Assembly: GCF_000195975.1 (NCBI RefSeq)
Contig: NC_005070.1
Coordinates: 2,370,001 to 2,402,000 of the forward strand
From: Parasynechococcus marenigrum WH 8102
GTDB lineage: Bacteria > Cyanobacteriota > Cyanobacteriia > PCC-6307 > Cyanobiaceae
DNA: 32,000 nucleotides
Direction of reading: 5' to 3'
Position numbers and translations under genes: made by a program. The notes beneath the pieces were generated by a model. That model ran no database searches, was not told where the DNA came from, and worked only from the letters and a program-made list of their open reading frames with translations. Shown here one piece after another: positions 6,963 through 25,743 of this stretch. Each line of letters opens with the position of its first letter. Within the stretch, counting starts at the first letter, position 1.

Positions 6963-6965
6963 GGT

Positions 6966-7745: not shown

Positions 7746-7766
7746 AGCGGGATCGAGGGTAGCTGT

Positions 7767-8555: not shown

Positions 8556-9214
8556 GGCAGAGAAACAAGCAGATCGATCAGGGCCTGGCGGGTGGGGGGA
8601 TGCTCCAGCAGAGGAGGCAATCCACCAGCTTCGCTCAATGCCTCCGTCATGAGGTTCGGGGCGAGGGTTAACGGGAGTGGGCGGGCGCAGGGATGGCGCT
8701 GCTGATACTTGGGCCAGGCATCAAAGGCAACCAATGGCAAGGCCAGGCGAGAGGAGAGCATCGCGAGGAAGCGATCCGCCACTCCCGGGCGCAGGGGGTG
8801 GTGCACCAGCACGGCATCACGGCGCTCAGACACCGGCAGTGCTGAGATCACCGCGTTCCACCAGGTGATCCAGGAGCCCAGAAAGGGAAGCAAACGCACG
8901 CTGGCCCCGGCGGCATGAAGCCTGTTGCGAATCGCCGGCACGTCCGTTCGGGCATGCGCTCCAGGCAACAGCAGCAACGGAACAATCCAAGAGGGTTGGG
9001 GAAGCGCCGACACGGGTTGTTCAGCCGTCAGCACCTCCAACTGAACGGGCGCCGATCGCCGCTGGGCCAGGAGATCCGGCAGGGAGGCCAAGCAGTCGGG
9101 AACGACACCGCCACTACGGCCATGCACCACCAGATGCAACCCTTGACGCCCCCGATCGGAAGCGTCATTCCGTAGCAATGGCCACGGATCAAAAAAAGAG
9201 CTATCTGATGTCAT
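8552..9214 (-). CDS. CbiX/SirB-like sirohydrochlorin chelatase (putative)
   Basis: LHLVVHGRSGG and LLLLPGAHARTDVP resemble the CbiX HGS and FLxxGxH blocks. It is start/stop-coupled to cobA and lies next to nirA, a siroheme enzyme. The ATG at 9212-9214 (MTSDSSFF) is preferred over the track start at 9259. Confidence 0.5.
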   Translation of the reverse strand: MTSDSSFFDPWPLLRNDASDRGRQGLHLVVHGRSGGVVPDCLASLPDLLAQRRSAPVQLEVLTAEQPVSALPQPSWIVPLLLLPGAHARTDVPAIRNRLHAAGASVRLLPFLGSWITWWNAVISALPVSERRDAVLVHHPLRPGVADRFLAMLSSRLALPLVAFDAWPKYQQRHPCARPLPLTLAPNLMTEALSEAGGLPPLLEHPPTRQALIDLLVSLP

Positions 9215-9774
9215 CGAGAAGTAATGACCTGGGGTAAGTACATGGCACCTCGCCAACAAAACGAACGTGCATCATTGGAAAGTCGTTTCTACCGGGCACA
9301 GACACGTCGGCGCTTTGACCTAAGCTCTACATTAATTGAAATTAAGAGTCCCAGTATGCGCAAAAGGGCAAAGCCGTACGACAAGAGTTACAGACGGCAA
9401 TACGAGCGGAATCGTAATTCCATCAACAGAACAACTTTTGAGTACGAACTAGAAAAGGACGTAGCCGCTTTGAAGACGGTTTGGCAAATGATCAGCTCGG
9501 GAGCTGCCCGCATGCTGAACAGAGTTTTACATCAGATTTAAATCTATAAAATGAATAGCATAGATCGCACAGGAAAAAGAATATAAAATCAACAGGGAAG
9601 CTGGGAGCCTAAAAAACCAACATTGTGCTAATATATTTCTTAAGTAGCTCGAGAAATCGAAGGTTACTTCACTATCGCACGCTTTCATTATTACGTAGCG
9701 ACAAAGGTCCCCGGGCCGATTAAACTGATCTACTACATTTTTTGATCGATCAGTCCGCCCTATTTTCATGAATC

Positions 9775-11316
9775 ATGACCATCAAAAACCAAGTCAACCC
9801 CTACTTCGCAGAAAAAAAATTGAATAAGATTGAAAAAAGTAAGTTGGAAAAAGATGGGCTTTTAGTAGGAAGCGAAATCGAAAAGTTTGCAAAAATTGGG
9901 TGGGAAAATATGGATGAAACCGACTTAAAACTCCGTCTGAAATGGTATGGAATGTTCTGGCGTCCGAAAACACCCGGAAAATTCATGCTAAGACTTAGAA
10001 TACCAAATGGTGTATTGACATCCAATCAAATACGAGTTGTAGCTTCAATAGTTGAACGTTATGGAGAAAATGGAAGCTGCGACATCACCACAAGGCAAAA
10101 CCTGCAACTTAGAGGAATACTATTATGCGATCTTCCCGAGATCCTTAGAAGACTGCGTGAAGCCGGACTAAGTAGCATCCAGTCGGGCTTTGATAATCCA
10201 CGAAACGTAACCGGCAATCCACTCGCAGGAATAGATCCGAACGAAATCGTCGATACGAGACCTTACACAACTAAATTGCAGAACTTTCTCACAAATAATT
10301 GTGAGGGAAATTCGGAATATTCCAACCTACCGAGAAAATGGAACACAGCAGTTGCAGGATCTAAAGACAATTTCCTTCTTCACAACGACATAGTGTTTCA
10401 TCCCGTTGAGAATAACGGCGTGATGGGTTTTAGCATCTGGATTGGAGGGATTTTATCTCCACAGATGAACGCATATGCATTTCCCATGAATGTATGGGTA
10501 TTACCTGACGAGATCTGCAACATTTTGGATACTGTGATTCGTCTCTGGAGAGACAATGGAGAAAGAGAGAAGAGAACCAAGGGACGTTTCCGCATGTATC
10601 TCGATGAGATAGGGCACGAGGAATTCCGCAGCCAAGTGGAAAAACTGTACGGAACACTCACTCCCGATCCAGGCTCAATATTCGAAAACTCTCCACGCTC
10701 TCACTTCGGCATTAATCAGCAGAAACAAGCCGGACTTTATTTTGCTGGCATACACGTGCCGGTCGGTCGCCTCACGGCAGAGGATCTACAAGATATCGCA
10801 ACAGCGAGTCTCAAATATGGAAATGGAGAAATTAGACTCACAGAAGACCAAAATATAATTATCACAGGTCTTACGAGTGAAAAAGTTGAAGAATTAAAGA
10901 CTGATACATTATTGCAGCGTTTCCCCCTAGCACCTAGCAATATTTCAGCAGGAACAGTGTCCTGCACGGGAAATACTTACTGTAGTTTTGCGCTTACCAA
11001 CACTAAAGACCAAGCCTTAAAAGCAGCAAAGGAACTTGACGAGGAGTTGAATCTACCTGAAGAGATAAAAGTTCACTGGACTGGCTGCCCAAATACATGT
11101 GGACAGGCTTATATGGGAGCAATAGGTTTAACAGGTACAAAGGCTAAAAATGCTGAAGGAGTAATGGGTGAAGGCTACACAATGACTATTGGTGGTTCAC
11201 AGGGTCGCAACCCAACTATTGGTCAAATCTATCGCAAAGCTATACCTGCGGCTGAAATCAAAACAGCCCTTAAGGAAGTACTTATTTCAAAATTTGGAGC
11301 TACAGAAAAGAAATAA
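9775..11316 (+). CDS. nirA: Ferredoxin-nitrite reductase NirA
   Basis: 513 aa with both siroheme/4Fe-4S cysteine clusters (VSCTGNTYCSFA and HWTGCPNTCGQAYM) and the N-terminal KLEKDG...LRLKWYGMFWRPKTPGKFMLRLRIPNG block typical of NirA. Confidence 0.9.
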   Translation: MTIKNQVNPYFAEKKLNKIEKSKLEKDGLLVGSEIEKFAKIGWENMDETDLKLRLKWYGMFWRPKTPGKFMLRLRIPNGVLTSNQIRVVASIVERYGENGSCDITTRQNLQLRGILLCDLPEILRRLREAGLSSIQSGFDNPRNVTGNPLAGIDPNEIVDTRPYTTKLQNFLTNNCEGNSEYSNLPRKWNTAVAGSKDNFLLHNDIVFHPVENNGVMGFSIWIGGILSPQMNAYAFPMNVWVLPDEICNILDTVIRLWRDNGEREKRTKGRFRMYLDEIGHEEFRSQVEKLYGTLTPDPGSIFENSPRSHFGINQQKQAGLYFAGIHVPVGRLTAEDLQDIATASLKYGNGEIRLTEDQNIIITGLTSEKVEELKTDTLLQRFPLAPSNISAGTVSCTGNTYCSFALTNTKDQALKAAKELDEELNLPEEIKVHWTGCPNTCGQAYMGAIGLTGTKAKNAEGVMGEGYTMTIGGSQGRNPTIGQIYRKAIPAAEIKTALKEVLISKFGATEKK

Positions 11317-11430
11317 TTATTTTATAAGAAATAAAACAAGTTATAAAGCAAAGTTGATCAACAGAGAAGAGTAAAGATAATATTGCAAAATTAAAAGAAT
11401 TGCAATAATTAGAGTATAGAAAAAAAGATC

Positions 11431-12357
11431 ATGCTAGGGTTAAAAGGTATAACAAAGAAAGTATCGAACTTAAATCAGATGGAGAATCTATATCACATTA
11501 GAGAAAGATTCTCAATTATTCATGATAACAAGAAAATAGGAATACAGATGAAATGGGAAGGTAAAAGAGAAAAACCTCCAATGCTAATGCTTCCGGCCTT
11601 AAGTACAATTTCAAGAAGCGATGAATGGCAGAGTTTTAAAGCAATAGTGACAGATAAATACCAATTAATAACAATTGATTGGCCTGGATTCGGCGAAAGT
11701 GATAAAAAAGATATACACTACAGCGGAAAAGTATTACAAAAAACACTTAGAAAAGCTATCAAAGCAATCCAGAGAAAAAATAATAAAAAGCTAACTATAG
11801 TTGCAGCTGGTCATAGTGCCTCAGTTGTACTTACACTAAAAGACAAGTACATCAATACAATAAAACAAGTTGTGCTAATTGCACCAACATGGAGAGGTCC
11901 ACTTCCAAGTATGACAGGATGGTCTCCTAAGAGGCTAAACATCATAAATGAAATAGTAAGACTTCCTATCATTGGTCCAATACTATACTTCATAAATACA
12001 ACAAAAGTGATTATAAGATTCATGATGAAAAGGCATGTATGGCTAAATAAGAATGACCTTGATAATGATAAAATACTCAGACTCCAAGTATTATCTCGAC
12101 AAAAGGGAGCACGATACGCAAGCGCAGCATTCGTAACAGGGAGTTTAGATATAGATAAAAATAAGAAGTGGTGGATATCAAATACAAAAAAGATTCAAGA
12201 AATGTCTACTCTTGTTATACCGAAGGATTCACCAAAAAAATCATTATCAGAGATGGAAGTACTCTCAGATAGCATTAAAGATATTTTATACGTTAGAGGT
12301 AGGCTAGGTTGCCACGAAGAATTCGGAGAAGAAATCGCAAAAAGATTATTCTACTAA
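11431..12357 (+). CDS. Alpha/beta-hydrolase-fold protein, function unknown
   Basis: It has IDWPGFGESD (a typical strand-loop motif after the oxyanion region), a nucleophile-elbow-like VAAGHSASV and a C-terminal GCHEE histidine. The start is uncertain (ATG 11431 or 11479). The 3' end overlaps the znuB 3' end by 12 nt. Confidence 0.5.
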   Translation: MLGLKGITKKVSNLNQMENLYHIRERFSIIHDNKKIGIQMKWEGKREKPPMLMLPALSTISRSDEWQSFKAIVTDKYQLITIDWPGFGESDKKDIHYSGKVLQKTLRKAIKAIQRKNNKKLTIVAAGHSASVVLTLKDKYINTIKQVVLIAPTWRGPLPSMTGWSPKRLNIINEIVRLPIIGPILYFINTTKVIIRFMMKRHVWLNKNDLDNDKILRLQVLSRQKGARYASAAFVTGSLDIDKNKKWWISNTKKIQEMSTLVIPKDSPKKSLSEMEVLSDSIKDILYVRGRLGCHEEFGEEIAKRLFY

Positions 12358-13176
12358 ATTGTATACACGAGAAAATATCAAAGAAAAAAGGAAAGCAAAG
12401 AATTGCAAGATTACAATCGAAGGACCTGAAGGTAGATTAAAGAAACCTGATAAAATAAGCCCAAACAGAGCACACAAACCGCCCAGCACCATAGAAAAAA
12501 CAATATAAGAACTAAACTTACGCGAAATAAGTCTACCAGCGCATGCAGGTATTACAACGAAAGCACTTATAAGCAATACACCAACAGACTTAATTGAAAC
12601 AGATACAACAATACCCAATAAAATGATGAAAGCAAGTTTATGGAATCTTGTGTTAATACCAATAGAGCCAGCCAAATCCTCATTAAGAGTTAAAAGAACA
12701 TGAGAACGAAGACTAAAGACAAGGTAGATAAAAGAAACAATAAAAAGGATCAATGTAATATATATATCTGATGCTGTAATACCAAGAATATCTCCAAAAA
12801 GCAACTGCTTAATGCTACCACTATAAGAGTTGATTTTACTTAAGGCAAGAACAGCTGCTGCTAGAGAGCTAGAATATACGATATTCAATAGTGCGTCGGT
12901 AGGCAAAGAACTGCTCTCAACTAGATTATTTACAAGAAATGCAAATATAATGGCAAAAGGAATAAGAACAAAAGTAGGATTCACATTTAAAAGGATACCT
13001 AGAGTTATACCGAGCAAGGCAGAATGCCCTAATGCATCACTAAAAAAAGCAAGTTGTCGGAGTACAGCAAAATAACCTATAAGCCCTCCTAAAGAACCAG
13101 TTAAAAAGCCACCAATTAATGCGCGGTGAATAAATGGCTCATCAAATAACTCAAAAAAAGTTGATAAATCACCCAC
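12346..13176 (-). CDS. znuB: Metal (zinc-type) ABC transporter permease, ABC-3 family
   Basis: 276-aa polytopic membrane protein (FIHRALIGGFLTGSLGGLIGYFAVLRQLAFFSDALGHSALLG is the ZnuB/MntB family N-terminal pattern). It overlaps znuC by 8 nt in an operon. Confidence 0.8.
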   Translation of the reverse strand: MGDLSTFFELFDEPFIHRALIGGFLTGSLGGLIGYFAVLRQLAFFSDALGHSALLGITLGILLNVNPTFVLIPFAIIFAFLVNNLVESSSLPTDALLNIVYSSSLAAAVLALSKINSYSGSIKQLLFGDILGITASDIYITLILFIVSFIYLVFSLRSHVLLTLNEDLAGSIGINTRFHKLAFIILLGIVVSVSIKSVGVLLISAFVVIPACAGRLISRKFSSYIVFSMVLGGLCALFGLILSGFFNLPSGPSIVILQFFAFLFSLIFSRVYNLVE

Positions 13177-13936
13177 GACATTGATGCTGATAAGAAACTA
13201 TATTGGGCCCATAGAGAACACTTAATCTTTCGGAAGTCAATGCAAGATTAGGTACACCTCGGCAGCACAAACGTCTATTTAAACCAAGTACTTGATCGCT
13301 ACTACGGAGAACCATATCAATATCGTGAGATATATGGAGGACAGTCCAACCTTCCTGCCGACGCAATTCAAATAACATTTTTTGAAAACGTTGAGTTGAA
13401 GGTATATCTAGACCAGCCTGAACTTCGTCCAAAACAAGAAGATCCCTCGGACGTACGATACAAAATGCAAGCATAACTCGCTTCAGTTCACCGCCAGAAA
13501 GTTCACTAAGAAGACGTCGTCTTAAATTAAAAGTATCGGTTCTTTCCAAAGATCGATGAACTAAAATCTTAGTATGGGAGTCACGCATGCGTAGAAAGGA
13601 CGAACAATTACTAAGTCCAAGTTGCACGAACTCAAATACGGAGAGGGGAAACTGACCCTGAAAAGAAAAATTCTGTGGAATATAAGAAATTCGCTCGCGT
13701 ATGGATTTCGGTAGATACCCAGCTTTATTCATTTTGGTGCCCATAATAGTGATGTCGCCTGAGACGCGCGGAATAAGACCCAACAAGGAGGCAACTAATG
13801 AACTCTTACCAGCACCATTAGGGCCAACTAAAGCTGTATCACTCTCAGCTAATAATTCAAAAGAAACATCATCTACAGCAACATTGGCACCCCTTCTTAC
13901 AGTAAGATTCTTAACAGAAGCAATTGGATATGACAT
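13169..13936 (-). CDS. znuC: Metal (zinc-type) ABC transporter ATPase
   Basis: Walker A GPNGAGKSS, ABC signature LSGGELKRV and Walker B LLVLDE are present. It lies between the permease and the binding-protein genes. Confidence 0.85.
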   Translation of the reverse strand: MSYPIASVKNLTVRRGANVAVDDVSFELLAESDTALVGPNGAGKSSLVASLLGLIPRVSGDITIMGTKMNKAGYLPKSIRERISYIPQNFSFQGQFPLSVFEFVQLGLSNCSSFLRMRDSHTKILVHRSLERTDTFNLRRRLLSELSGGELKRVMLAFCIVRPRDLLVLDEVQAGLDIPSTQRFQKMLFELRRQEGWTVLHISHDIDMVLRSSDQVLGLNRRLCCRGVPNLALTSERLSVLYGPNIVSYQHQCRG

Positions 13937-13939
13937 AGT

Positions 13940-14848
13940 TTAACCACCAAGAGAGAGAAGAAGATTGGACAAGTTATCCCGCATAAGGTCAAAATAGAGA
14001 GACTCGTCATACACAAAATCCCGTGAAATAGTTTCAATGGGATTGAATAGTGCTATTTTAATATTAAGATCACGTGCCAACGAATTGAAAGAATTGTTTC
14101 CATCTTGAGGCTCAGTTAAAAGAGCCTTTAAATCGGAGTCTCGAACAAGATTCGAAACTCGCTGTAAATCAACGGGGCTTGGATTGATATCTGGCAGATC
14201 AACTAAGTATTCAGCTTTTAATTGATATCGTTCAGCAAAATATGGTGCAAAGTCATGATAGGCGATAAATGATTTGCCCTGATAAGGCTCCAACTTGGAT
14301 AAAATTTCAGCATGCAATGCGAGCAGGTCATCCACATAAGCGGAGGCATTTAAAGTATAAACTTCACTACAAGCAGGGTTTAATTCCGCAAGAGCATCTT
14401 TAATAGTCTCAACCTGGCTAATAGCGCGTATAGGATCTAACCATATGTGAGGATTAGGATCAGAATCCGCGTTAGAGATATCAGTAGAAATGGTCTTGAT
14501 ACCAATACTAGTGTCAACAACGGATAATGTTGTACTCGCTGATGAAGAGATTAGCCTGTCTAAAAAAGTCTCCATTCCCAAGCCGTTAATAAAAAATATA
14601 TCAGCCTTGCCAATAGATAGAATGTCCTTAGGAGTTGATTGAAAATCGTGTGGTCCAATATTTGTGGGTATTAAAGCTTTGACATCACCGCATTCACCGG
14701 CTACTGCCCTAGCAAATAGTGTTATGGGAAGGAATGAGGTCATAATAGAAATTTTCTTAGACCTCTCAGGAGGCGTTGTGAGGGAGCCGCAAGAAACCAA
14801 AAATATTGAGGCTAGCGAGCCAGTAGCCCACTTACTGAAGCGCACCAT
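13940..14848 (-). CDS. znuA: Periplasmic metal-binding lipoprotein, ZnuA/TroA cluster A-I
   Basis: The signal has a lipobox (SIFLVSCGS). Ligand-position motifs are GPHDFQ, NPHIWLDP and AYHDFAPYF. The third ligand position is His, as I recall for Zn-type rather than Mn-type members. There is no long His-rich loop. Confidence 0.75.
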   Translation of the reverse strand: MVRFSKWATGSLASIFLVSCGSLTTPPERSKKISIMTSFLPITLFARAVAGECGDVKALIPTNIGPHDFQSTPKDILSIGKADIFFINGLGMETFLDRLISSSASTTLSVVDTSIGIKTISTDISNADSDPNPHIWLDPIRAISQVETIKDALAELNPACSEVYTLNASAYVDDLLALHAEILSKLEPYQGKSFIAYHDFAPYFAERYQLKAEYLVDLPDINPSPVDLQRVSNLVRDSDLKALLTEPQDGNNSFNSLARDLNIKIALFNPIETISRDFVYDESLYFDLMRDNLSNLLLSLGG

Positions 14849-14965
14849 GTAGGAGAAGCGAAGTCAAATACGATACGAAAAACCAAAGATATATTTGAAT
14901 CACTGAAAAAAAAAGGCAGTGTAAGCTACCTGGTATTAGTATAGTAGTTGATCACTCATCTAGTA

Positions 14966-16348
14966 ATGAAAGAAAAGCGAAAGGTTCCTGTCACCATACT
15001 TACTGGCTACCTTGGGGCAGGGAAAACCACACTGTTAAACAAGATCTTGAGAGAAGAGCACGGCAAAAAGATTGCAGTCATAGAAAACGAATACGGCGAA
15101 GTTGGAATTGATCAAGGACTCGTCATTAATGCAGACGAAGAGGTCTTTGAAATGTCTAATGGTTGCATTTGTTGCACGGTAAGAGGTGATCTGATAAGAG
15201 TCCTAGGCAATCTAATGAAACGTAGGGACAAATTTGATTACGTTTTAGTTGAAACGACCGGCCTCGCTGACCCAGGGCCGGTAGCACAAACTTTTTTTAT
15301 GGATGATGAAGTTAGAGATGAATTTACTCTTGATGGAATAGTGACGTTAGTAGATTCTGCTCACATTAATCAACAATTAGAACATAGCACTGAAAGTGCA
15401 GAGCAGGTCGCCTTCGCGGACGTACTCATACTCAATAAAACTGACTTAGTTTCCAAAAACGAAGTCAACGTACTTGAATCACGCCTTAGAGATATGAACA
15501 AAATGGCCCGTATACTGCGTTCAAAAGAAGCAGGGGTCGATGTTGAAGATGTCTTGAATCTTGGTGCATTTGATCTCCAGCAAACATTAGATAGACGTCC
15601 GACATTTCTCGAACCTGAATATCCGTTTGAGTGGACCGGAGTATATGAACTTAAGAAAGGAAACTACAGGCTTTATTTTGATGATGGACCTGATCCAACA
15701 ATGCTAATAACAGCAATAGAATTTAATAGTTCAAATGGAAAAGATCTTGACGGGTACGCCGAAGATTGTGTAAGAATATTTTCAAAAGAACCTAAACAAC
15801 TTATGCCAGGTGAAGCAATAAGTTTTAACGAGGTTATTGAATTACAATTACAAGATGCGGGTCAGAAGGCCTTTGAATTATACATAGATAATAAATCAAC
15901 TATAGGTCTCTTCACCCAACATACGGCAGAAGAATTCAATATAAGACTGGATGACAATAAGGATGATCAGACAAGAGATAAAAAATTTAGCAATATAACT
16001 AAGGGGATTGATACAAAGACCGAAAGAATATGGGTAGCTGAACACGAGCATGACGATGAAGTTGGATCTATTGCTCTAGAAAGCCTTGGCAACATTAATC
16101 CAGATAAATTAAACGATTGGATTTCAAAACTTCTCCGAGAAAAAGGAGTAGATATATTTAGAACCAAAGGATTTATCAGCTACGCTGAAGAATCTAGAAA
16201 AATTGTATTTCAAGGGGTCCATATGTTATTTACTGCAGAGCCTGGAAGCGAGTGGGGAAACGAGCCCAGGAAGAACCAACTTGTATTCATAGGCCGAAAT
16301 TTAGACGAGGATGCATTAAGGACTGAGTTTGAAAAATGTCTAGCATGA
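14966..16348 (+). CDS. COG0523 (CobW/ZigA/YeiR-like) G3E-family GTPase metallochaperone with ~150-aa internal insertion
   Basis: Motifs present: Walker A GYLGAGKTTLLN, metal-binding CICCTVRGD (CxCC), LVETTGLADP, NKTD, an acidic/His patch AEHEHDDE, and a CobW_C-like end (IFRTKGFISY...LVFIGRNLD). The ATG at 14966 is preferred over the TTG at 14948. It is divergent from znuA. Confidence 0.85.
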   Translation: MKEKRKVPVTILTGYLGAGKTTLLNKILREEHGKKIAVIENEYGEVGIDQGLVINADEEVFEMSNGCICCTVRGDLIRVLGNLMKRRDKFDYVLVETTGLADPGPVAQTFFMDDEVRDEFTLDGIVTLVDSAHINQQLEHSTESAEQVAFADVLILNKTDLVSKNEVNVLESRLRDMNKMARILRSKEAGVDVEDVLNLGAFDLQQTLDRRPTFLEPEYPFEWTGVYELKKGNYRLYFDDGPDPTMLITAIEFNSSNGKDLDGYAEDCVRIFSKEPKQLMPGEAISFNEVIELQLQDAGQKAFELYIDNKSTIGLFTQHTAEEFNIRLDDNKDDQTRDKKFSNITKGIDTKTERIWVAEHEHDDEVGSIALESLGNINPDKLNDWISKLLREKGVDIFRTKGFISYAEESRKIVFQGVHMLFTAEPGSEWGNEPRKNQLVFIGRNLDEDALRTEFEKCLA

Positions 16349-17403
16349 AAAGATCTAACAGCATCTTTCAAGATGGATGGTACAGTGAAATTAGCGAATA
16401 CGTAATAGCTTGTGACTGGGCACTCGAAAATAAGAATATTATTGCTGCAGATATAACAGGCAACATTTACTCTTTTGATGCAAAAACAGGGAAGTTACTA
16501 TACATGCAAAAAGACACTCACAACAAATCACTCTTAGATCTAGCAGTAAATCCCAACGGAAGCATATATGCAACTTGTGGCCAAAACGGCAAGGTTGATA
16601 TTAATGCGGCTTCAGATGGAAGCTTACTAAGTTCAAACTCATTAGGCAATGACTGGGTTGACAATATACAATGGACAAACAACGGAAAATTATTAGCCGG
16701 TAGCATTGGAAAGTTCGTACATGTGATTGATTCGTCAGGAAATCAATTATGGCGTTCCGATGAACTGACAAGTACTGTGTCAGCAATATATTGGTCAAAT
16801 AATAACGAATTAGCGATAGCAAGCTATGGCCAAGTGATTATTTACGATGTAAAAACCAATAAAGCTTGTCAAAGATTTGAGTGGAAGGGATCTCTTATAT
16901 CATTGGCATTGAGCCCAAACGGGGAAATTGTAGCTTGTGGAAGTCAAGACAATTCAGTACATTTTTGGCGACGAACTAATGGTAAAGACGCTGAAATGAC
17001 TGGTTATCCTGGCAAACCTAAAGATATTGTGTTCGATATTACGGGTCAATATTTAGCTACAGGGGGAAGCCCCCAAGTTACAGTATGGAACTTTAAAGAT
17101 AAGGGTCCTGAGGGAACAATTCCGGGACAACTTATACTTCATAATGAGCCGATAAGTTGCCTTAGCTTTGCTAACAGTAGCTCGTTATTAGCATCTGGTG
17201 CAAAAGATGGATCAATTGCAATTTGGAAATTAGATAAAAATGGAGATGGTGAGCCCATTGACAAGGTATCCATCAACTCGACGCCGACACGACTAAAATG
17301 GAAGAGAGACGATAATGCCTTTTTAGCTGCTAGCGACTCGGGGAAATTATTCTGCTGGGATATACCGTCTAAAAAAGGAGAAGGAATCGGATTCAAAAAC
17401 TAA
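16336..17403 (+). CDS. WD40-repeat beta-propeller protein
   Basis: 355 aa with repeated blades ending in W-x motifs (VHFWRR, VTVWNF, IAIWKL, LFCWDI) and GS/GG-rich turns. It overlaps the COG0523 3' end. The in-frame ATG at 16345 forms an ATGA overlap with the TGA stop at 16346-16348. Confidence 0.8.
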   Translation: MSSMKRSNSIFQDGWYSEISEYVIACDWALENKNIIAADITGNIYSFDAKTGKLLYMQKDTHNKSLLDLAVNPNGSIYATCGQNGKVDINAASDGSLLSSNSLGNDWVDNIQWTNNGKLLAGSIGKFVHVIDSSGNQLWRSDELTSTVSAIYWSNNNELAIASYGQVIIYDVKTNKACQRFEWKGSLISLALSPNGEIVACGSQDNSVHFWRRTNGKDAEMTGYPGKPKDIVFDITGQYLATGGSPQVTVWNFKDKGPEGTIPGQLILHNEPISCLSFANSSSLLASGAKDGSIAIWKLDKNGDGEPIDKVSINSTPTRLKWKRDDNAFLAASDSGKLFCWDIPSKKGEGIGFKN

Positions 17404-17748
17404 ATATATGACCGTTCGATATAATCCTTGAGGATCAAAGGAAGTTGATTAAGAAATTAGAAACTAATTCAAATGCGACTGGCCGGACTGTATAATGGTG
17501 TAAATCAATACAATACACGTTATGTATCAAACTCAATGGCTGGCCTCCGTCACTGACTCACTGCGGAAGCGTTATCTAAAGTCTCAAAAAGAAAATGACA
17601 AAAAAGCAACTACAGAATTGTTTAAGGAAGCGGTTTATTTAGGCATTAACATACGCAATTTTGATTAAGATTTTTAATGGGCCGACAATAGATTCCTTTA
17701 TAATAACATGAATGTATATAATATAGGAAGAGTCCTAGCCTATTGCCA

Positions 17749-18072
17749 ATGAATGAAGAATCAGCAAAAAGTAACGAAGACCAAGATATTTTTTCACAAT
17801 TAATGAAAGAAGTAAGTACACTTGCTTTATTAAAAGAATCAGGTGCAAGTATTATTCAAGGAAAGATTTTAATAATTATCGTTGGAATTGAAAAGGATGG
17901 AGAATTGTTAAAGGGCAAAGAGATACAACCTAAATATTGCAATATAAGCAATGAAGAAGAATTCCAAGAATTTATTAAGGGTAATTACAAAAATGTTGAT
18001 ACTTTATATGTAAGATACTTTAGACCCGGAGACATAGAATTAAGTGAAATTACTAAATACATAATAAAATAA
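17749..18072 (+). CDS. Hypothetical protein (107 aa from the ATG)
   Basis: A stop-free run of about 109 codons in roughly 30% GC DNA is unlikely by chance. The protein has an acidic N-terminus and a hydrophobic core (ILIIIVGI). No recognisable motif. Confidence 0.35.
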   Translation: MNEESAKSNEDQDIFSQLMKEVSTLALLKESGASIIQGKILIIIVGIEKDGELLKGKEIQPKYCNISNEEEFQEFIKGNYKNVDTLYVRYFRPGDIELSEITKYIIK

Positions 18073-18112
18073 AAGAGCTACTTTAGGCGGGTTCAACAAA
18101 CACAAAGTGTAA

Positions 18113-18979
18113 CTAAGAAGACTCTTCAACTGCTCTTGTTTCGCGAAGGAGATGATCCTCAAGTTGGAGTTTGATATCAATGAAGAGAGAATCTTTTTCT
18201 ATAATATTACGGATTCTGGGCCTTGGCAAAGGGACATCTATAATATCTGCAATATTTGCAGATGGTCCACTTGACATAAGTACAATTTTGTCAGACATTA
18301 ACAATGCTTCTTCAATACTATGTGTAATTAAAAGAGCTGTGACTCTATTTTTCTCCCATATTTTTAACACTTCTTCTTGCAAATAGGACCTTGTAAGGGC
18401 ATCAAGGGCTCCAAAAGGCTCGTCCATAAGTAACATAGACGGATTAATAGACAAAGCTCGTGCAATAGCAACTCTCTGCTTCATACCACCTGAAATTTGC
18501 TTTGGAAACTTGTTCATTGAGCGTTCTAACCCAACCATATTCAAAAAGTATCTGGCTTTTTCACGCCTCTGTGAGGTACTTAGTTCTGGACAGGCCGTCT
18601 CTAAGGCATATTCGATGTTGCCTGCGGCGGTAAGCCAGGGCATCAGTGCGTAGTTCTGAAAAATTATGCCTCTGTCTGGACCAGGGCCAACCAGTGGCTT
18701 GCCTTCGATGAAAATTTCACCAGACGTGAAATCATCTAATCCTGCTAAAAGATTCAAAAGCGTTGATTTACCACAACCCGAAGGGCCAATCAAAGAGACA
18801 AAAGTGTTCTTTTTAATATCGAGATTCACACCTTCAAGAGCAACATAGTTCTCAGTTTTTTTGTTAAAAAGAGAAGGTCGAGAAATTGGGAAAACTTTGC
18901 TTAGATTTACAATTTCAACATGAGATTCATGTTCCTTGTAAGAAATGGAATCAACTGAACTGGGAACAGATTTAGTCAT
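18113..18979 (-). CDS. cynD: Cyanate/nitrate/bicarbonate-family ABC transporter ATPase (CynD-like)
   Basis: Walker A GPSGCGKST, signature ISGGMKQRV and Walker B LLLMDEP are present. It overlaps the permease gene by 4 nt. The substrate is assigned from the cynS context and from the known cynABDS clusters of marine picocyanobacteria. Confidence 0.75.
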   Translation of the reverse strand: MTKSVPSSVDSISYKEHESHVEIVNLSKVFPISRPSLFNKKTENYVALEGVNLDIKKNTFVSLIGPSGCGKSTLLNLLAGLDDFTSGEIFIEGKPLVGPGPDRGIIFQNYALMPWLTAAGNIEYALETACPELSTSQRREKARYFLNMVGLERSMNKFPKQISGGMKQRVAIARALSINPSMLLMDEPFGALDALTRSYLQEEVLKIWEKNRVTALLITHSIEEALLMSDKIVLMSSGPSANIADIIDVPLPRPRIRNIIEKDSLFIDIKLQLEDHLLRETRAVEESS

Positions 18980-19755
18980 GAATCGTAATTGAATCGAAGT
19001 TGCAAAATCTCAAAGATTTGATCCAGTACATAACCAGTTATTCCTATGATTATAATTGCTACAAATATGTTAGCTACATATAAATTGTTCCATTCATTCC
19101 ATATAAAATATCCGATACCCGTGCCTAGAAGCATTTCAGCAGCAACTATTACAAGCCATGCTGTACCCATTGAAATTCTCATCCCAGCTAAAATATTTGG
19201 CATTACTGCAGGTAAGATGACTTTGGTAATGGTATTTGTTTTGGAAGCACCTAATGACTTTGCAACTTTTAAGACATCAGAATCTACGGATTGAACACCA
19301 ATTGCGGTATTAATTAAAGTCGGCCAGATGCTTGTAATAAAAATGACAAAAATACCGGTAACTTCTGAATTTCTAAATACGAATAAGCCAATGGGCAGCC
19401 AGGCAAGCGGTGAGACCGGTTTCAGTAGTTGTACATAAGGATCAACAGAAGACTTAACGGTTTTGGAAACACCAACAAAGAGACCGACTGGAATTGCAAC
19501 AACCATTGCAAGTGTGTAACCAATTAGAACTCTTCTTAAGCTTATAAGTAAATTGAAACCAATCCCTAAATCGTTAGGACCGTTATCAAAAAATGGATCT
19601 GATATCCACCATAATAATTCCTGAAAGGTCTTTAAAGCCCCTGGAAAATTAGGAATTAAATTGGTACTGGCTATAATTTCCCAGACAACGCAAAAAGAGA
19701 GGAGGCTAGATCCTGAGATCAGTAACGATCTCAGGATTGTTGACTTTGTAGACAT
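18976..19755 (-). CDS. cynB: NrtB/CynB-family ABC transporter permease
   Basis: 259-aa membrane protein with the binding-protein-dependent permease pattern (VAKSLGASKTNTITKVILPAVMPNILAGMRISMGTAW, an EAA-like loop). It lies between cynA and cynD. Confidence 0.8.
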   Translation of the reverse strand: MSTKSTILRSLLISGSSLLSFCVVWEIIASTNLIPNFPGALKTFQELLWWISDPFFDNGPNDLGIGFNLLISLRRVLIGYTLAMVVAIPVGLFVGVSKTVKSSVDPYVQLLKPVSPLAWLPIGLFVFRNSEVTGIFVIFITSIWPTLINTAIGVQSVDSDVLKVAKSLGASKTNTITKVILPAVMPNILAGMRISMGTAWLVIVAAEMLLGTGIGYFIWNEWNNLYVANIFVAIIIIGITGYVLDQIFEILQLRFNYDS

Positions 19756-19760
19756 ACAGT

Positions 19761-21440
19761 CTATACACCGTCTCTATCAATTTGTTTGCTGACATAGCCC
19801 AACGGATCAGTAGGGTCAAAGCTGTCGTATGCAAGCTTCTCAGTCTTGAACGAACGGGAGGGAGGATTGAAACCCAGCTCCCTCTCCAAAGATTGAGCTT
19901 CATTTGTTAGGAATATTGCAGCACTATTAGCATTAAAGTCACCAGCTTTAATTGCGTCAGCAGCTCCTCCAAGGTCCCATCGTACAAGTTGAGACTGAAT
20001 CCAATGTGAAAAGCTCTGCCAAGGATAAGGTTTAAAATCTATTCTGTCAGGAACATTTTTCTTATTGCCCAAGCCGTCATCGAACTTGCCTGTCAAAACA
20101 GCTTCAACGACTTTAGTCGGTTGGTTTAGGAAGGCGCGGCCAGAAATGTATTTCGCAATTTCAGATCTGTTAGTAGGATTTGTTGCATAATTCGCAGCTT
20201 CAATAATAGATTTATTGATGGCTTTAAAAGTATTTGGATGCTTGTTAATCCAGGGTTCACCCGCAGCAAAAGCGCAGCATGGATGACCAACCCAGAGATC
20301 CTTAGTTAGAAGGTGAATAAAACCAACACCTTCAAACACAGCTCTTTGATTAAATGGATCAGGCATCAAATATGCATCGATATCACCTGCAACCATCTGG
20401 GCAACACTATCCGGTGGTGGTACAGGGCGAATTTGTACATCCTTATCAGGATCAACTCCACCCTTAGCGAGGTAATATCTAAGTAGTAAATTATGCATCG
20501 AGTATGGGAATGGTACTCCGAATACAAAGCCTTTCATATCTGCGGCAGATTTAACTTTATCCTTGTGGCGATTAGCTACAGTTATTGCTTGTCCGTTGAT
20601 ATTTTCAATACTGGCTAATTTGACGCTGAATGGAGAAGTTCCCAATCCCAAAGTCATAGAAATAGGCATTGGAGCGAGCATGTGATAAGCATCAAGCTCA
20701 CCTGCAATGGCCGAATCGCGAACAGCTCCCCAACTTGGCATTTTCACAACCTTACATTTCAAACCATTAGATTTATAGAAACCCATAGGTTCTGACATGA
20801 TTATCGGTGTTGCACATGTAATTGGAATGAATCCAATCTTCAAGTTAGTTTTCTCTAATTTACCGCCGGCATGACCTGCTGCATGAGCATCTTGAGTATC
20901 TAAGCCTGCGCTATTGGCAATTGTTATCATGGCCGCACCAGCAGCCAATCCTTTGAGAAATGACCTTCTTCCAAAAGGGGAACTAGAGTGAATAGAGGCA
21001 AAGAATTCACCTGCTTGAGGACCAAAAGCTGCTGCCATTGCTTGGTCTAATCCACCGGCTTCTTCAGCTAGTGCCCGTAGAAGCTTTTCCTTGGCAGGAT
21101 CACCTTGAGAAGCGTTCTTATAAAAAAGAATCTCTCTAAGCTCCGCTGATGAAACAGCCTCAGCGACTTCTACAGCATCGGCTTTAATCAAACCCATTTT
21201 ATAAAAATCATCCATCAAATCCTCAGGATCTGAAGGCATATCTTCGGTAAAATCTTGATGATCTGGACTAAATGGCCGGCATTCTACACAGAAGCAAAAC
21301 AAACCATGACCGGTTTGTGGTTGAAAGGAAGGAGAACTTGATGTAGCTTCTGTAGTGCTATTACATTGAAGCTGTGACTTAAGAATCTCAGCGGCAGTCT
21401 GAGTTGTTGTGGATGCATGCGAGGTGAAAAGATTCGCCAC
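19761..21440 (-). CDS. cynA: NrtA/CmpA/CynA-family periplasmic substrate-binding protein with long N-terminal extension (GTG start in track)
   Basis: Residues from about 190 to 559 read as an NrtA-like binding protein (KIGFIPITCATPII, AYLMPDPFN, GHPCCAFA). A perfect Tat motif, GRRSFLKGLAAGAAM, sits at residues 157-170 rather than at the N-terminus. The frame stays open for the 134 AT-rich codons between the GTG and Met135 (21036-21038). Confidence 0.8.
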   Translation of the reverse strand: MANLFTSHASTTTQTAAEILKSQLQCNSTTEATSSSPSFQPQTGHGLFCFCVECRPFSPDHQDFTEDMPSDPEDLMDDFYKMGLIKADAVEVAEAVSSAELREILFYKNASQGDPAKEKLLRALAEEAGGLDQAMAAAFGPQAGEFFASIHSSSPFGRRSFLKGLAAGAAMITIANSAGLDTQDAHAAGHAGGKLEKTNLKIGFIPITCATPIIMSEPMGFYKSNGLKCKVVKMPSWGAVRDSAIAGELDAYHMLAPMPISMTLGLGTSPFSVKLASIENINGQAITVANRHKDKVKSAADMKGFVFGVPFPYSMHNLLLRYYLAKGGVDPDKDVQIRPVPPPDSVAQMVAGDIDAYLMPDPFNQRAVFEGVGFIHLLTKDLWVGHPCCAFAAGEPWINKHPNTFKAINKSIIEAANYATNPTNRSEIAKYISGRAFLNQPTKVVEAVLTGKFDDGLGNKKNVPDRIDFKPYPWQSFSHWIQSQLVRWDLGGAADAIKAGDFNANSAAIFLTNEAQSLERELGFNPPSRSFKTEKLAYDSFDPTDPLGYVSKQIDRDGV

Positions 21441-21462
21441 AAATCGGGTTCATACTTCTTTA

Positions 21463-21505
21463 TTTATAGTTGGAAAGCGAACGCGGATGTTGTATCAGGT
21501 GATAC
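21463..21505 (-). promoter_or_regulatory. NtcA-activated (class II type) promoter of cynA: GTA-N8-TAC box plus -10 element
   Basis: TGTATCAGGTGATACT is at 21491-21506, with GTA at 21492-21494 and TAC at 21503-21505. On the minus strand, TATAAA (21468-21463) begins 24 nt after the box. The cynA GTG at 21440 lies about 20 nt further on. Confidence 0.6.
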
Positions 21506-21694
21506 TCATAGCAAAACTTGTCGGAATTGTCTCACTTGCTACATTAATCGGCTGTTCAATTTATTAGAGAGAAAGGTAGTTCTCCAGATAAAATTTGTTG
21601 GATGTCCTAAACAGTATGCGCTTAAACTGAAAATTATACTTATTGCAACAATGAGTGAATCTTTATTATTAGGAATTTATTATATTTGAGAGAA

Positions 21695-21711
21695 GATCTG
21701 CTGCGCAGATC
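21695..21711 (-). terminator. Short hairpin downstream of tatA (candidate terminator)
   Basis: GATCTGC-tgc-GCAGATC is a 7-bp stem lying 13 nt after the tatA stop on the minus strand. It is followed there by TTCTCTC, which is only partly U-rich. Confidence 0.3.
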
Positions 21712-21724
21712 AATCGCCTTAAGA

Positions 21725-21928
21725 TTAAAGGGTATCTTCTTTAGGATCTTTGTCCTCCAAGACAACTACATCAATTTCTCTCTTAAATTCATCAGAGGCG
21801 GATCTAAAACCGCCCAAATATTTAGCCAAATATTTTCCTACTTTGGGCAATTTATTAGGCCCTAAGACTAATAAAAAAATAAGGCATATAATTAGTATCT
21901 CAGGAAAACCTAATCCAAAAAAGCTCAT
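21725..21928 (-). CDS. tatA: Twin-arginine translocase subunit TatA/E
   Basis: The 67-aa product MSFFGLGFPEILIICLIFLLVLGPNKLPKVGKYLAKYLGGFRSASDEF fits the TatA pattern (G..E, TM helix, GP.KLP..G, amphipathic F+ region). Confidence 0.75.
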   Translation of the reverse strand: MSFFGLGFPEILIICLIFLLVLGPNKLPKVGKYLAKYLGGFRSASDEFKREIDVVVLEDKDPKEDTL

Positions 21929-21948
21929 TTGTGATTGACCGCTAATTT

Positions 21949-21976
21949 ATTATAGCTGTGACGGTAAGTTCATCAA
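21949..21976 (-). promoter_or_regulatory. Candidate sigma70-type promoter for tatA (TTGATG-N16-TATAAT)
   Basis: On the minus strand TATAAT lies at 21954-21949 and TTGATG at 21976-21971, with a 16-nt spacer. The -10 element ends 20 nt before the tatA ATG. AT-rich context makes chance matches likely. Confidence 0.3.
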
Positions 21977-22073
21977 GTTGATTTTAGACATATTTAAGAT
22001 TACCAATTTTGCTTTTGTAAAATTACTATCGAACGGTATACGTGCATAATGTAAATTCATGCAGCAGGCAATA

Positions 22074-22102
22074 TAATTGATTGATTTGCAAGCAATCAAT
22101 TA
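22074..22102. repeat. Perfect 10-bp inverted repeat with 9-nt spacer (TAATTGATTG-atttgcaag-CAATCAATTA), function unknown
   Basis: Read directly from lines 22021 and 22081. It lies in the AT-rich non-coding stretch between tatA and the HEAT-repeat gene. No flanking T-run, so it is not a typical terminator. Confidence 0.9.
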
Positions 22103-22601
22103 GCTGGCACATTCTCCTAATATTCGGCTTCAAAAGTATATGCTCGTTTGTTGTATTCTCTTAATTCATTGCTTATTTAACCACTCAGACTTCTAAAATA
22201 GTATAAGGATATATAACTTTATCTCAAATGACTTATTACAATCAAAAAAGAGTCGGGTTCTGATTGGTGCAGACGTAAACGTAAAATACCGACGGGTTGA
22301 TACAAAATCGTAATTGTTAACCGACAACGAATTCTTAGTAGAACTGGATACAATTTAAATACAATAATTGAAGTTTAGATAAATTCGGCATACATCATGT
22401 GTCAAGAGCGAGTCGTAATCATTTACCTAGGTAACCATAAATGAAAAATCATACGCTCAGACTCAGCAAACCTAAAATAGGGAAAATGATATGTGATATA
22501 TTTAATCGGTACCAAGACTATATAGTAGACTTGTTGTGTTCGTTTCTACACAATGAAGAATTACATCTTGCACCAAAAAAAACTACTAGCGCTAAACAAC
22601 C

Positions 22602-23327
22602 ATGAAGGATAACGAATCAGATCTGTGGGAAAGACTCGGAAATTCACGTAAGGTTCCATTGGATCCTCGTTGGTTAGAAAATGTTTATTCGCCCAACCTT
22701 GCTACTGATCTGCGGCTAGCTCTCTGTGAAAAAATGGGTATGCTTGCAGATCATGGCTGGCCGATTATTGAACATCTACTGCAACGCTATGGCGACATGC
22801 CTGAATTGGTGATGGCCGCAGGACTCTGCCATCAAATTGAGGCCCGTGAATGGTTACTGGAACTGCTCAAGCGCAGCAATGATAATGAAAAACTTCGACT
22901 AACTGCAGTTCAATCGCTTAGTTGTTGGGGTGCTGAAGTTCCCGAAGCAATCGTCACTCATTGCTTACATCATCCTGGTCAAAGTTATCGACTCGCTGGA
23001 CTTCAATTGCTGGAATTTCGCTCACATCTTCTAACAGATCACCAACTCTTGGATTACTGTAATGAAGCACTCAACGATTTTCGGGATTCAGTTGTTATTG
23101 AAGCAGTCCGTATAATTCAGCGTCGTGACAGTAAAGAAATCTGCAAACGATTATTTTGTTTGTGTCAAGAAGACTCTGACGAAGTCGCATTTACCGCACT
23201 CAGAGCTCTTAGCTGTATAGCATCCGAAAACAGCAAGAGATATTTACTGAAACTTAGTAAAACCCTAAAAAGTGAATCAAGACGGTCATTTGCCCAAAAA
23301 AAACTTAACGAACAGTTTAGAACCTAA
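22602..23327 (+). CDS. HEAT-like (PBS-lyase/NblB-type) repeat protein, function unknown
   Basis: 241 aa with recurring helical-repeat signatures (RLTAVQSLSCWG, YRLAGLQLLEF, VVIEAVRIIQRRD, VAFTALRALSCIA). It is on the opposite strand to the surrounding cyn genes. G+C is somewhat higher than the rest of the island (lines 22801 at 53%, 23101 at 37%). Confidence 0.55.
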   Translation: MKDNESDLWERLGNSRKVPLDPRWLENVYSPNLATDLRLALCEKMGMLADHGWPIIEHLLQRYGDMPELVMAAGLCHQIEAREWLLELLKRSNDNEKLRLTAVQSLSCWGAEVPEAIVTHCLHHPGQSYRLAGLQLLEFRSHLLTDHQLLDYCNEALNDFRDSVVIEAVRIIQRRDSKEICKRLFCLCQEDSDEVAFTALRALSCIASENSKRYLLKLSKTLKSESRRSFAQKKLNEQFRT

Positions 23328-23349
23328 AGCCCAATAAGAATTGGGCTTT
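23326..23349. terminator. Hairpin between convergent genes (candidate bidirectional terminator)
   Basis: AAAGCCCAA-taagaa-TTGGGCTTT is a 9-bp stem that starts inside the HEAT-gene stop codon and lies 23 nt from the cynS stop. The A/T runs in the stem arms give U-tracts on both strands. Confidence 0.5.
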
Positions 23350-23372
23350 AGATAAGTCCAAAGCCTTAGATT

Positions 23373-23807
23373 TCACCATTTCTTATAGGGTAAAAACTTA
23401 CCACACATTACAATTTTGACACGATCACCTTTAGGGTCCTCAACTTTATCGACATCAATAGTGAAATCAATGGCACTCATAATTCCATCTCCGAAATGCT
23501 CCTGAATTACATCTTTCAGAGGCATACCATACACCTGCATGATCTCGTAAAAACGATAAATCAAAGGATCAGTGGGAATCACTGGCTCAAGGCTTCCCTT
23601 GGTTGGATATTCCTGCAGTGCCGCTGTTGTTTCTGCATCAAGGGATAACAAACCAGCAAGTTTCTCGGCCTCCTCCTTCGAGGCCGTCGCTTGGCCATAG
23701 AACAAAGATGCAACCCAAACCTCATCGAGACCAATGGCCGCCTCGAGATCAGCAAAACTCATACCTTTGGCCTTTTTGGCGGCCATCAACGTGGCTGTTA
23801 AAGACAT
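23373..23807 (-). CDS. cynS: Cyanase (cyanate hydratase) CynS
   Basis: [40 protein letters not shown]...[12 protein letters not shown]...[34 protein letters not shown] has the typical cyanase N- and C-terminal domains. The ATG at 23805-23807 was verified. The track start at 23837 is a TTG and less likely. Confidence 0.9.
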
Positions 23808-24244
23808 AACGGTCAAGCGAACAATAAACTGCCTCAAAGCAGCATTCCAAATCGGAACGTCTCAGAAGCATCGTAAGTGTCACCCAGCAGATGCACTCAA
23901 AATGCAGCAACGGCGACCAAATCAATTCATCGTTTTGATGCATCGCATACAACAGACACGTTCCTGTGACGCTGCAATAAAAAAATATAACTACAATCAA
24001 ATGAGTCAGCTCTTTCGGGACATCTCGTCGTTGTTGTTCAGCCAACAATTGCAAGCAAAACCGGCCATCAACCTCGTCCTCGAGCGTCTGTACTACGCCG
24101 ATGGTCGTCACAACCCCGACCATCCCCGGCACGGCAGCTTCGACGGACTGAACGTCCTGCCGCAACACTAGGACGATTGGTATCAACCACTACTTTCATG
24201 GGGTCCGGCACTCCTGAACACTTCGTTCAGCTGAGGGGACATCT

Positions 24245-25315: not shown

Positions 25316-25743
25316 CGCTTGAACGGGACGCCTCCGATGCTGATGGTTTCCGGAGCCTGCACACGCCAACCGCAGCGTTCCAGCAACGGACGACTCAACT
25401 GACTCGCTTCGGTGCGCAACCGCTCCACCCCCTCATGGCGGGCATCGGCCTCAATCTGGTCCAGCAAGGCGCGGCCATGGCCCTGGCGGCAAGCCCGTCC
25501 TCGGCAATAAAGCAAAGACAAGCGATCCCTCGGTTCACGGATGGCAAAGGCAGCGTCGTGACCGCTAATCCACCCCTGCCCCTCCAGGAAGGTGCGATCC
25601 AGGATCCCGGGCAACCAGGCCAGAGCCGCCCAGGCGCGGACCTGGTCTGAGGAATAGAGCCCCGGAGCCTGACTCTCGATGGCATCCGCGTAGATCTCCC
25701 GCAGCAGGGGGTGATCAGCGGACCCGATCGGGCGGAGTGGCAT
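25276..25743 (-). CDS. GNAT-family N-acetyltransferase
   Basis: 155 aa with an acetyl-CoA-binding-type motif (LLYCRGRACRQGHGRALLDQIEADAR). There is a 40-nt convergent overlap with the TrpD-like gene. Confidence 0.7.
   Translation of the reverse strand: MPLRPIGSADHPLLREIYADAIESQAPGLYSSDQVRAWAALAWLPGILDRTFLEGQGWISGHDAAFAIREPRDRLSLLYCRGRACRQGHGRALLDQIEADARHEGVERLRTEASQLSRPLLERCGWRVQAPETISIGGVPFKRYRMDKWLLQDRS

Follow-up and report, generated by a model that had tools for sequence, protein, structure and literature searches.

Flexible genomic islands of the replacement type, such as O-antigen and capsule loci and the flexible islands of marine bacteria, are flanked by core genes and exchanged by homologous recombination. 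Marine picocyanobacteria also carry integrase-bearing islands, the tycheposons, reportedly described by Hackl and co-workers in 2023, and cyanate use is said to have been described by Kamennaya and Post in 2011. Here we analyse a stretch of 32,000 nucleotides (nt), referred to as the window (positions 2,370,001 to 2,402,000 of NC_005070.1), from WH 8102, a model oligotrophic Synechococcus. Within it a block of low G+C content (GC) occupies the locus that runs from nirA, encoding ferredoxin-nitrite reductase, to cynS, encoding cyanase. We consider it probable that a replacement-type genomic island is exchanged at the nirA-cynS locus by homologous recombination and that this block is the form of it carried by WH 8102 (clade III).

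The cynABD genes were catalogued as a clade III-specific island, Syn_GI013, found in all 8 clade III strains and few others, and according to the supplement of the same study most other 5.1 strains have cyanase without the transporter (Dore et al., 2020, PMC7522525). As far as the available parts of that study extend, locus, cynABD genes and phyletic pattern of Syn_GI013 agree with the WH 8102 block. Its text there names cynA-B-D only, whereas the block in WH 8102 additionally comprises a hydrolase gene, a ZnuABC-type importer, a COG0523-WD40 gene pair, a TatA-like gene and AT-shifted alleles of nirA, of a HEAT-repeat gene and of cynS, and has replaced a formate/nitrite (FNT) transporter. The literature searched contained no account of the full 14.8-kb unit (an earlier remark on composition is possible, for example in Palenik et al., 2003), of co-replaced nirA, HEAT and cynS alleles, or of multiple island types with different breakpoints. 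A first-pass annotation made from the letters of the window had likened its gene order to that of some oceanic Synechococcus strains and supposed that the block might already be annotated. Both were right: cobA and the trpD-like gene in the flanks encode proteins identical to CAE08990.1 and CAE09007.1 of WH 8102, respectively, so that the window is WH 8102 itself, and with its cynABD core already catalogued the block is a replacement-type island in a model genome.

In windows of 500 nt, GC was 0.61-0.68 over positions 1-9000 (with a dip to 0.57 at 1501-2000), 0.31-0.46 over 9501-24000 and 0.54-0.65 beyond 24000. A two-segment likelihood scan placed the maximum-likelihood change points at 9187 and 24060, giving mean GC values of 0.640 for the left flank, 0.390 for the block and 0.597 for the right flank. 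For 19 genes of the flanks, GC at third codon positions (GC3) was 0.68-0.80, and for the 15 genes of the block it was 0.19-0.51. The sliding-window GC and GC3 profiles thus contain a step, and they bear out both the abrupt low-GC block of about 14.8 kb and the switch of third codon positions to A/T that the first-pass annotation had read by eye. The abrupt fall that it had placed just past the cbiX-like start stands, the left edge being sharp (within ~60 nt) at the cbiX 5' end. On the right, GC changes as a gradient rather than a step, through cynS, which is intermediate (GC 0.45, GC3 0.45), and the spacer between cynS and the trpD-like gene is AT-rich in island-free relatives too (41-46% GC). 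From either edge GC declines gradually inward to the cargo, the ~11 kb lying between nirA and the HEAT gene in the 14.8-kb compositional block. Amino-acid usage is shifted as well, the fraction of FYMINK residues (one-letter codes F, Y, M, I, N and K) being 0.30 in the NirA of the block vs 0.24, and 0.20 in its HEAT protein vs 0.08-0.10 in orthologues, which points to prolonged AT pressure.

Relatives were collected by a nirA scan of species-representative genomes, which yielded 51 loci (L numbers below denote loci) and, catching only relatives that share exact 8-mers, under-samples Synechococcus. Loci of Synechococcus 5.1 have the order cobA-cbiX-(small open reading frame, ORF)-nirA-(~1.1 kb)-HEAT-cynS-trpD-like-GNAT-MFS-ppk-sigma, and a Prochlorococcus locus of ~52% GC (L019) has the same order minus cynS. 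The island-free loci L003-L016, L047-L049 and L069 show this backbone order at a GC of 0.53-0.66, and the ~1.1-kb gene between nirA and HEAT is the FNT transporter (Pfam Form_Nir_trans in L069). No hydrolase, znuBCA, COG0523, WD40, 109-amino-acid (aa) ORF, cynDBA or tatA was found in the backbone-order loci. WH 8102 differs in two respects: the ~11-kb cargo stands in place of the FNT transporter, and the nirA, HEAT and cynS alleles are AT-shifted, with aa identities to island-free Synechococcus of ~80%, 56-64% and 76-92% (92% to L004), respectively. The position is therefore fixed and its content alternative, the backbone in more than 20 loci enclosing either the FNT transporter or the 11-kb cargo.

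The junctions were located by comparison with these relatives. The left flank is ~92% identical in nt to island-free L004, L006 and L009; compared with L004 in steps of 60 nt, the sequence keeps 85-97% identity as far as ~9170 and has less than 60% from ~9200 onward, the point at which GC drops as well. A second type of island (type 2; L059 and L061), 77-78% identical in nt and 73-91% in aa to the WH 8102 block, resides in a host that shares 96% identity with L004 at cobA. There the match of L061 to L004 is 92-100% until window position ~8780, within cbiX, and ~50% thereafter. The presence of two different left breakpoints implies two independent crossovers, and because the type-2 break lies inside cbiX, the type-2 source must have had its own lower-GC cbiX (GC3 0.53). 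WH 8102 and the type-2 locus L068 are 82-93% identical in nt (mostly 88-92%) over ~25560-29100 and ~91% in cobA, with 60-78% identity in between, a range that includes cynS through GNAT; the trpD-like gene of L068 has a slightly lowered GC3 of 0.60. Likeness of ~90% outside and 60-78% inside means that the two lineages hold different cbiX-to-GNAT alleles, a pattern that vertical co-inheritance cannot yield. Abrupt breaks were thus found at differing points near core genes (on the left at ~9170-9200 and ~8780, on the right at ~25560 between WH 8102 and L068), and the sharp break at the cbiX 5' end together with the type-2 break inside cbiX argues that the block moves by homologous recombination. 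Lateral exchange through conserved flanks had been proposed in the first-pass annotation, and breakpoints in backbone genes now provide the evidence for it.

Both junctions recur in independent sequences. L064 is 97.8% identical in nt and collinear over 16.5 kb across the left junction, and L067 is 92.2% identical and collinear over 16 kb across the right one; within clade III the block is vertically shared and co-diverges with its flanks. The cultured strains A15-28, A18-46.1, RS9915 and WH 8103 also have the low-GC nirA, at 97-99.6% identity. Other versions occur outside cultured clade III, in L059/L061/L071, in L068/L070 and in L020 (single cell AG-670-A05). In the six island loci with a visible flank (L059, L061, L064, L067, L068 and L070), only nirA-cynS is low in GC, the flanks being at 54-66%.

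ARAGORN identified no tRNA genes, Rfam families gave no match, no repeats bracketing the block were found, profile searches of the window proteins gave no match to integrase or transposase families, and there was no DNA match among 50,697 phage records, for which reason a phage vector for the block was rejected. The lack of integrase, transposase, tRNA target and terminal repeats noted from the letters alone was confirmed by these family, ARAGORN and repeat searches. With no recombinase, tRNA or att target or end repeats, the block does not have the make-up of an integrative element, prophage or tycheposon, and it does have that of a replacement-type island without self-mobility functions. It shares with tycheposons a cargo for nutrient acquisition and a low GC relative to the Synechococcus host, but is without their tyrosine recombinase, tRNA target and att-like repeats. 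With replacement-type islands it has in common the fixed core-gene position, alternative content, absence of integrase, tRNA and repeat, breaks in core genes and deviant composition. Unlike in those islands, the arms (nirA, HEAT and cynS) took on the composition of the cargo, and the low GC persists across types that are 77-78% identical in nt. The genes of the block and its borders are as follows.

8552-9214, minus strand: cbiX-like gene of the native high-GC left flank (GC 0.63; 90-93% aa identity to island-free L004)
9224-9541, plus strand: hypothetical 105-aa ORF, the first composition-shifted gene (GC 0.47, GC3 0.51)
9775-11316, plus strand: nirA, ferredoxin-nitrite reductase, low-GC allele of a backbone gene (NF007125, 862 bits, cutoff 594)
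11431-12357, plus strand: alpha/beta-hydrolase-fold protein, cargo (weak matches to Pfam Abhydrolase_1 and Hydrolase_4)
12346-14848, minus strand: second ZnuABC-type metal ABC importer (Pfam ABC-3, ABC_tran and ZnuA), made up of znuB (12346-13176), znuC (13169-13936) and znuA (13940-14848), published tags synw2479-2481
14948/14966-16348, plus strand: COG0523 GTPase with an insert of ~150 aa (Pfam cobW and CobW_C)
16336/16345-17403, plus strand: WD40 beta-propeller gene, overlapping the COG0523 gene
17743-18072, plus strand: hypothetical 109-aa ORF, cargo, with the lowest GC of the block (0.27; GC3 0.19)
18113-21440, minus strand: cynABD, cyanate ABC transporter (cynD 18113-18979, cynB 18976-19755, cynA 19761-21440)
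21492-21505, plus strand: putative NtcA-type box GTATCAGGTGATAC, an exact GTAN8TAC, 52 nt upstream of the cynA GTG start
21725-21928, minus strand: TatA/E-like 67-aa protein, the last cargo gene (NF011429, 67.4 bits, cutoff 77)
22602-23327, plus strand: HEAT-repeat protein, low-GC allele of a backbone gene
23373-23837, minus strand: cynS, cyanase, backbone gene (TIGR00673, 206 bits, cutoff 113)
24245-25315, plus strand: trpD-like gene (PRK07394) of the high-GC right flank (GC3 0.68; exact match to CAE09007.1)

All block ORFs are intact, and the functions named in the first-pass annotation (nirA, ZnuABC-type, COG0523, WD40, cynABD, TatA-like and cynS) were recovered in the searches. Among the backbone genes, GC3 of the block allele is 0.38 vs 0.79 in L004 for nirA, which acts as the left homology arm of the block, and 0.45 vs 0.69 for cynS. 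The 105-aa ORF is a poorly conserved backbone ORF, a syntenic ORF of 66-106 aa being called in other loci, and it shares 87% identity with its counterpart in L064 of clade III and ~35% with those elsewhere; the 109-aa ORF is 65-68% conserved in island type 2, and neither ORF (9224-9541 and 17743-18072) gave a family match. The alpha/beta-hydrolase gene is missing from island type 2 (L059) and is 62-66% identical in L020.

A NrtA-like binding protein, a NrtB-like permease, a NrtD-like ATPase and cyanase, and hence all parts of a cyanate system, are present. The transporter scored 213.9 bits with TIGR01183 (cutoff 209) and 291.2 with TIGR01184 (cutoff 291.8), and CynA is a binding protein of Pfam family NMT1_2; cyanate is the predicted substrate of the transporter, following the published annotation. 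Besides the box upstream of cynA, two further NtcA-type boxes were found, in the spacer between tatA and HEAT and in that between cynS and the trpD-like gene. The window holds 3 such boxes vs 2.06 expected, which is not significant, and it is the position of these putative boxes, not their number, that is suggestive. On this basis the block would add cyanate uptake, probably under NtcA control, to a cyanase already present in the lineage.

The second importer includes a cluster-9 binding protein, a permease and an ATPase of the ZnuABC type, all of which scored under the NCBIfam equivalog cutoffs. As the flank proteins are exact WH 8102 matches, its genes are the published synw2479-2481, which are constitutively expressed, rise under phosphorus depletion, are regulated neither by zinc nor by Zur and have no predicted Zur box (PMC9337993). 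The literature thus does not bear out a Zur-regulated zinc importer, and the metal specificity is putative; we suggest that arrival with the island may account for the Zur-independence. The COG0523 and WD40 genes overlap by a few bases, the insert in the former is His-poor, and the two genes stay side by side both in Prochlorococcus and in all versions of the island, suggesting that they are translated together and work as a pair. Their association, with the ~150-aa insert, has been described and is uncharacterised, and the WH 8102 COG0523 protein was placed in branch 1a (PMC3323870). Two long, AT-rich, non-coding spacers of GC ~0.32 lie within the block, at 17404-17742, where a 48-aa ORF is called in other assemblies, and at 21929-22601, the spacer of 670 nt that adjoins the TatA/E-like gene and carries an NtcA-type box at 22338-22351; neither matched an Rfam family.

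The history that best fits these observations can be outlined as follows. In an ancestor of clade III, a native nirA-FNT transporter-HEAT-cynS segment would have been replaced by a foreign haplotype through a double crossover in conserved backbone genes, on the left at the cbiX 5' end (~9170-9200) and on the right within or just past cynS (~23.6-24.06 kb). The incoming haplotype would have brought its own AT-shifted nirA, HEAT and cynS and a cargo of ~11 kb with the hydrolase, the Zur-independent ZnuABC-type importer, COG0523-WD40, cynABD and the TatA-like gene, and would have been inherited vertically in clade III since. Cyanate uptake and a second metal uptake and chaperone module would have been gained, and the FNT transporter lost. 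The immediate source would be a picocyanobacterium with the same backbone, from the Synechococcus side of the tree, and no sampled Prochlorococcus.

Prochlorococcus, or another low-GC picocyanobacterium, was the donor envisaged in the first-pass annotation, whose overall interpretation holds for recombination and fails for this donor. Direct passage from Prochlorococcus, which we regard as improbable, would agree with a block GC of 0.39, inside the Prochlorococcus range, with the grouping of the WH 8102 COG0523 protein with Prochlorococcus (PMC3323870) and with the low-GC marine contigs that give the best non-island matches to CynA (75-77%). It would also agree with the high-light (HL) Prochlorococcus locus L055 (GC 0.32), which has znu, zur, COG0523, WD40, cynABD, cynS and tatA in one neighbourhood, the TatA-like gene following cynS. 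The trees speak against it. With amino acids and with Dayhoff-6 recoding alike, the low-GC NirA sequences, themselves monophyletic (100%), grouped with Synechococcus against Prochlorococcus with 100% support. They were sister to other 5.1 sequences with amino acids (76%) and nested inside 5.1 after recoding, these being the two readings of one unrooted split. For HEAT, island and Synechococcus stood apart from the rest at 76-81% bootstrap, cynS was joined to Synechococcus and separated from HL Prochlorococcus and Cyanobium with 100% support, and a grouping of island with Prochlorococcus had 0-1% support for both; NirA, HEAT and CynS of the block thus lie outside Prochlorococcus. Identities to Prochlorococcus are low throughout (nirA 64-71%, HEAT 36-44%, cynS 69-71%, COG0523 67-69%, WD40 47%, znuBC 25-31%, with COG0523 and WD40 compared without any Synechococcus comparator), and CynA and CynB are about as near to a Cyanobium-like locus (73%) as to HL Prochlorococcus (75%), those two being 73-76% alike. 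The composition that had seemed Prochlorococcus-like differs as well, GC3 being 0.29-0.45 in five compared block genes vs 0.19-0.27 in low-GC Prochlorococcus loci and 0.49 in the ~52% GC locus L019. L055 and L056 encode the same functions (a metal ABC transporter, COG0523 with insert, WD40, cynABD, cynS and TatA-like) but at 47-75% identity, with the Znu permease and ATPase at 25-31%, and they have zur, a 613-aa ZnuA and cynABD in the opposite orientation and not beside nirA. Since the set shared with L055 has such modest identities (COG0523 67%, WD40 47%, tatA 47%, znuBC 25-31%), the cargo appears to be an old common neighbourhood and not a recent export from Prochlorococcus. Vertical inheritance, with AT drift in place and loss of the cargo from relatives, is less probable still. 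The backbone proteins of the block do branch with the lineage of the flanks, Synechococcus 5.1, and co-diverge with them inside clade III, as that account would have it, but the block is absent from the next relatives. The fall in nt identity to L004 from ~90% to below 60% at ~9170-9200, the other breakpoint of type 2 in a host so close to L004 at cobA, and block alleles much more diverged between clade III and L068 than the flanks are all contrary to it, as is the identity of island nirA to other 5.1 nirAs, 77-81% where those are 85-88% identical to each other, which puts island nirA on a long branch. That the block is a chimera of the assembly, or was brought in by a phage or an integrative element, was suggested by a first exact match on a metagenome contig and by the GC of many cyanomyoviruses, which is near 0.39. 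This origin is effectively refuted and hardly worth entertaining: the exact proteins lie on the 2,434,428-bp WH 8102 chromosome, the same junctions occur in single-cell genomes and in assemblies made independently, a chimera is excluded by the recurrence of the exact NirA and trpD-like proteins across many such assemblies, and the phage, integrase, tRNA and bracketing-repeat searches were negative.

Several points weigh against the replacement by homologous recombination that we prefer. WH 8102 and L004 are 70-80% identical in nt throughout the trpD-like gene, with no sharp break in similarity on the right-hand side, and the right flank has a separate history of its own. The trees are neighbour-joining trees of short alignments with 100 bootstraps and midpoint rooting, not composition-aware maximum-likelihood trees; the four cultured strains are presumably clade III; and loss of the island in the L004 group is an alternative to its gain in clade III. 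Nor was a donor genome found, all six island loci with a visible flank having high-GC flanks: no low-GC-flanked copy appeared among the 51 genome loci, three metagenome loci and further neighbourhoods examined, and of the three loci from a metagenome scan with a ZnuA alignment 0/3 had low-GC flanks. The divergent trpD-like and GNAT alleles of L068 are still 56-57% GC, which argues that the immediate source may have been a high-GC Synechococcus with a low-GC island. Otherwise of an ordinary island kind, the block has one unexplained feature, the persistence of ~39% GC in hosts of ~60% GC, retained across island types only 77-78% identical in nt. An explanation to which we give a minor share of belief is that the low GC is intrinsic to the island haplotype and not derived from a donor genome. 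Cargo and linked arms would then form a separate, rarer gene pool, recombining only homologously, that conceivably drifted to an AT-rich mutational equilibrium while the core was held at high GC. Restriction of low GC to nirA-cynS in the six loci, the GC of the L068 alleles, the GC gradient from both edges toward the cargo and the AT-shifted amino-acid usage fit this proposal. With a distant outgroup, substitutions polarised within clade III ran from AT to GC at ~2:1 in the block (156:77 and 124:69) and in reverse in the flank (25:47 and 23:85; that is, mostly GC to AT, 47:25 and 85:23), and with a close outgroup those in the block were balanced (48:42), although parsimony on biased composition produces such a block/flank pattern as an artefact. 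The proposal is weakened further by the left boundary, sharp within ~60 nt, by the want of a mechanism through which the high-GC force would spare the block in clade III, where all strains carry it, and by the possibility of an unsampled donor, only three metagenome matches having been obtained. Only tentatively, then, do we picture a long-lived haplotype without mobility genes that relies on homologous recombination alone to pass between Synechococcus lineages, its arms (nirA, HEAT and cynS, joined in some versions by cbiX) travelling and evolving with its cargo. If that picture were true, the haplotype would escape the force by which the core of Synechococcus is kept GC-rich and would be a natural probe of how high GC is maintained; in any case the lasting low GC poses a real, if modest, problem for the evolution of base composition. 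Nitrogen thrift was considered as a cause of the low GC and rejected, side-chain nitrogen per residue in the block not being lower (nirA 0.372 vs 0.351-0.368; HEAT 0.473 vs 0.41-0.47).

Under replacement by homologous recombination, the nitrite reductase and cyanase of clade III are island alleles and not the original copies of the lineage, and cyanate uptake, the second metal importer and the loss of the FNT transporter came as one package. This bears on studies of WH 8102 that have used block genes for nitrogen (nirA, cynABD and cynS) and zinc (synw2479-2481 and COG0523), and arrival as a package alters how the adaptation of clade III to nitrogen- and phosphorus-poor waters is read.

Further observations concern the flanks and individual loci. 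The two flanks differ in their relatives: the left one (1-9200; narB, moa, cobA and cbiX) is ~92% identical in nt and mostly 85-98% in aa to the L004 group, and the right one (24245-32000) only 60-85% identical in nt to L004/L006/L009; one of the two, the nitrate/molybdopterin cluster of ~9 kb or the region on the right, would itself have been swapped between clades. The trpD-like and GNAT genes (24245-25743) are 60-73% identical in nt to L068 (7206-8704), below the island (~78%) and the region beyond (~90%). Across Synechococcus the MFS gene (25763-27040) has two allele classes regardless of island presence, the WH 8102 type being 83-96% identical in aa in L011, L015, L047, L049, L067, L068 and L070 and only 62-67% identical to the L004 group, L013 and L014. 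L057, a Tara contig of GC 0.32, carries the closest non-island CynA (74-77%) and, beside it in divergent orientation, a WD40 gene only 25% identical to that of WH 8102, a further low-GC variant of the WD40-cynA linkage. L018 (DAISXU010000222.1) is a 2.6-kb contig with a Synechococcus-type nirA (73-74% aa identity) in a metagenome-assembled genome labelled Flavobacteriales, probably by a binning error. Within the sequence collection, 245 blocks have an index entry for the exact WH 8102 NirA protein. L001/L002 lie on the 453-kb contig k127_102110 (ENA ERZ922660) from an estuary metagenome (PRJNA320136), where the NirA and trpD-like proteins are identical to those of the open-ocean isolate WH 8102 and the gene order is equal; the contig could stem from a real close relative, a spike-in or culture carry-over.

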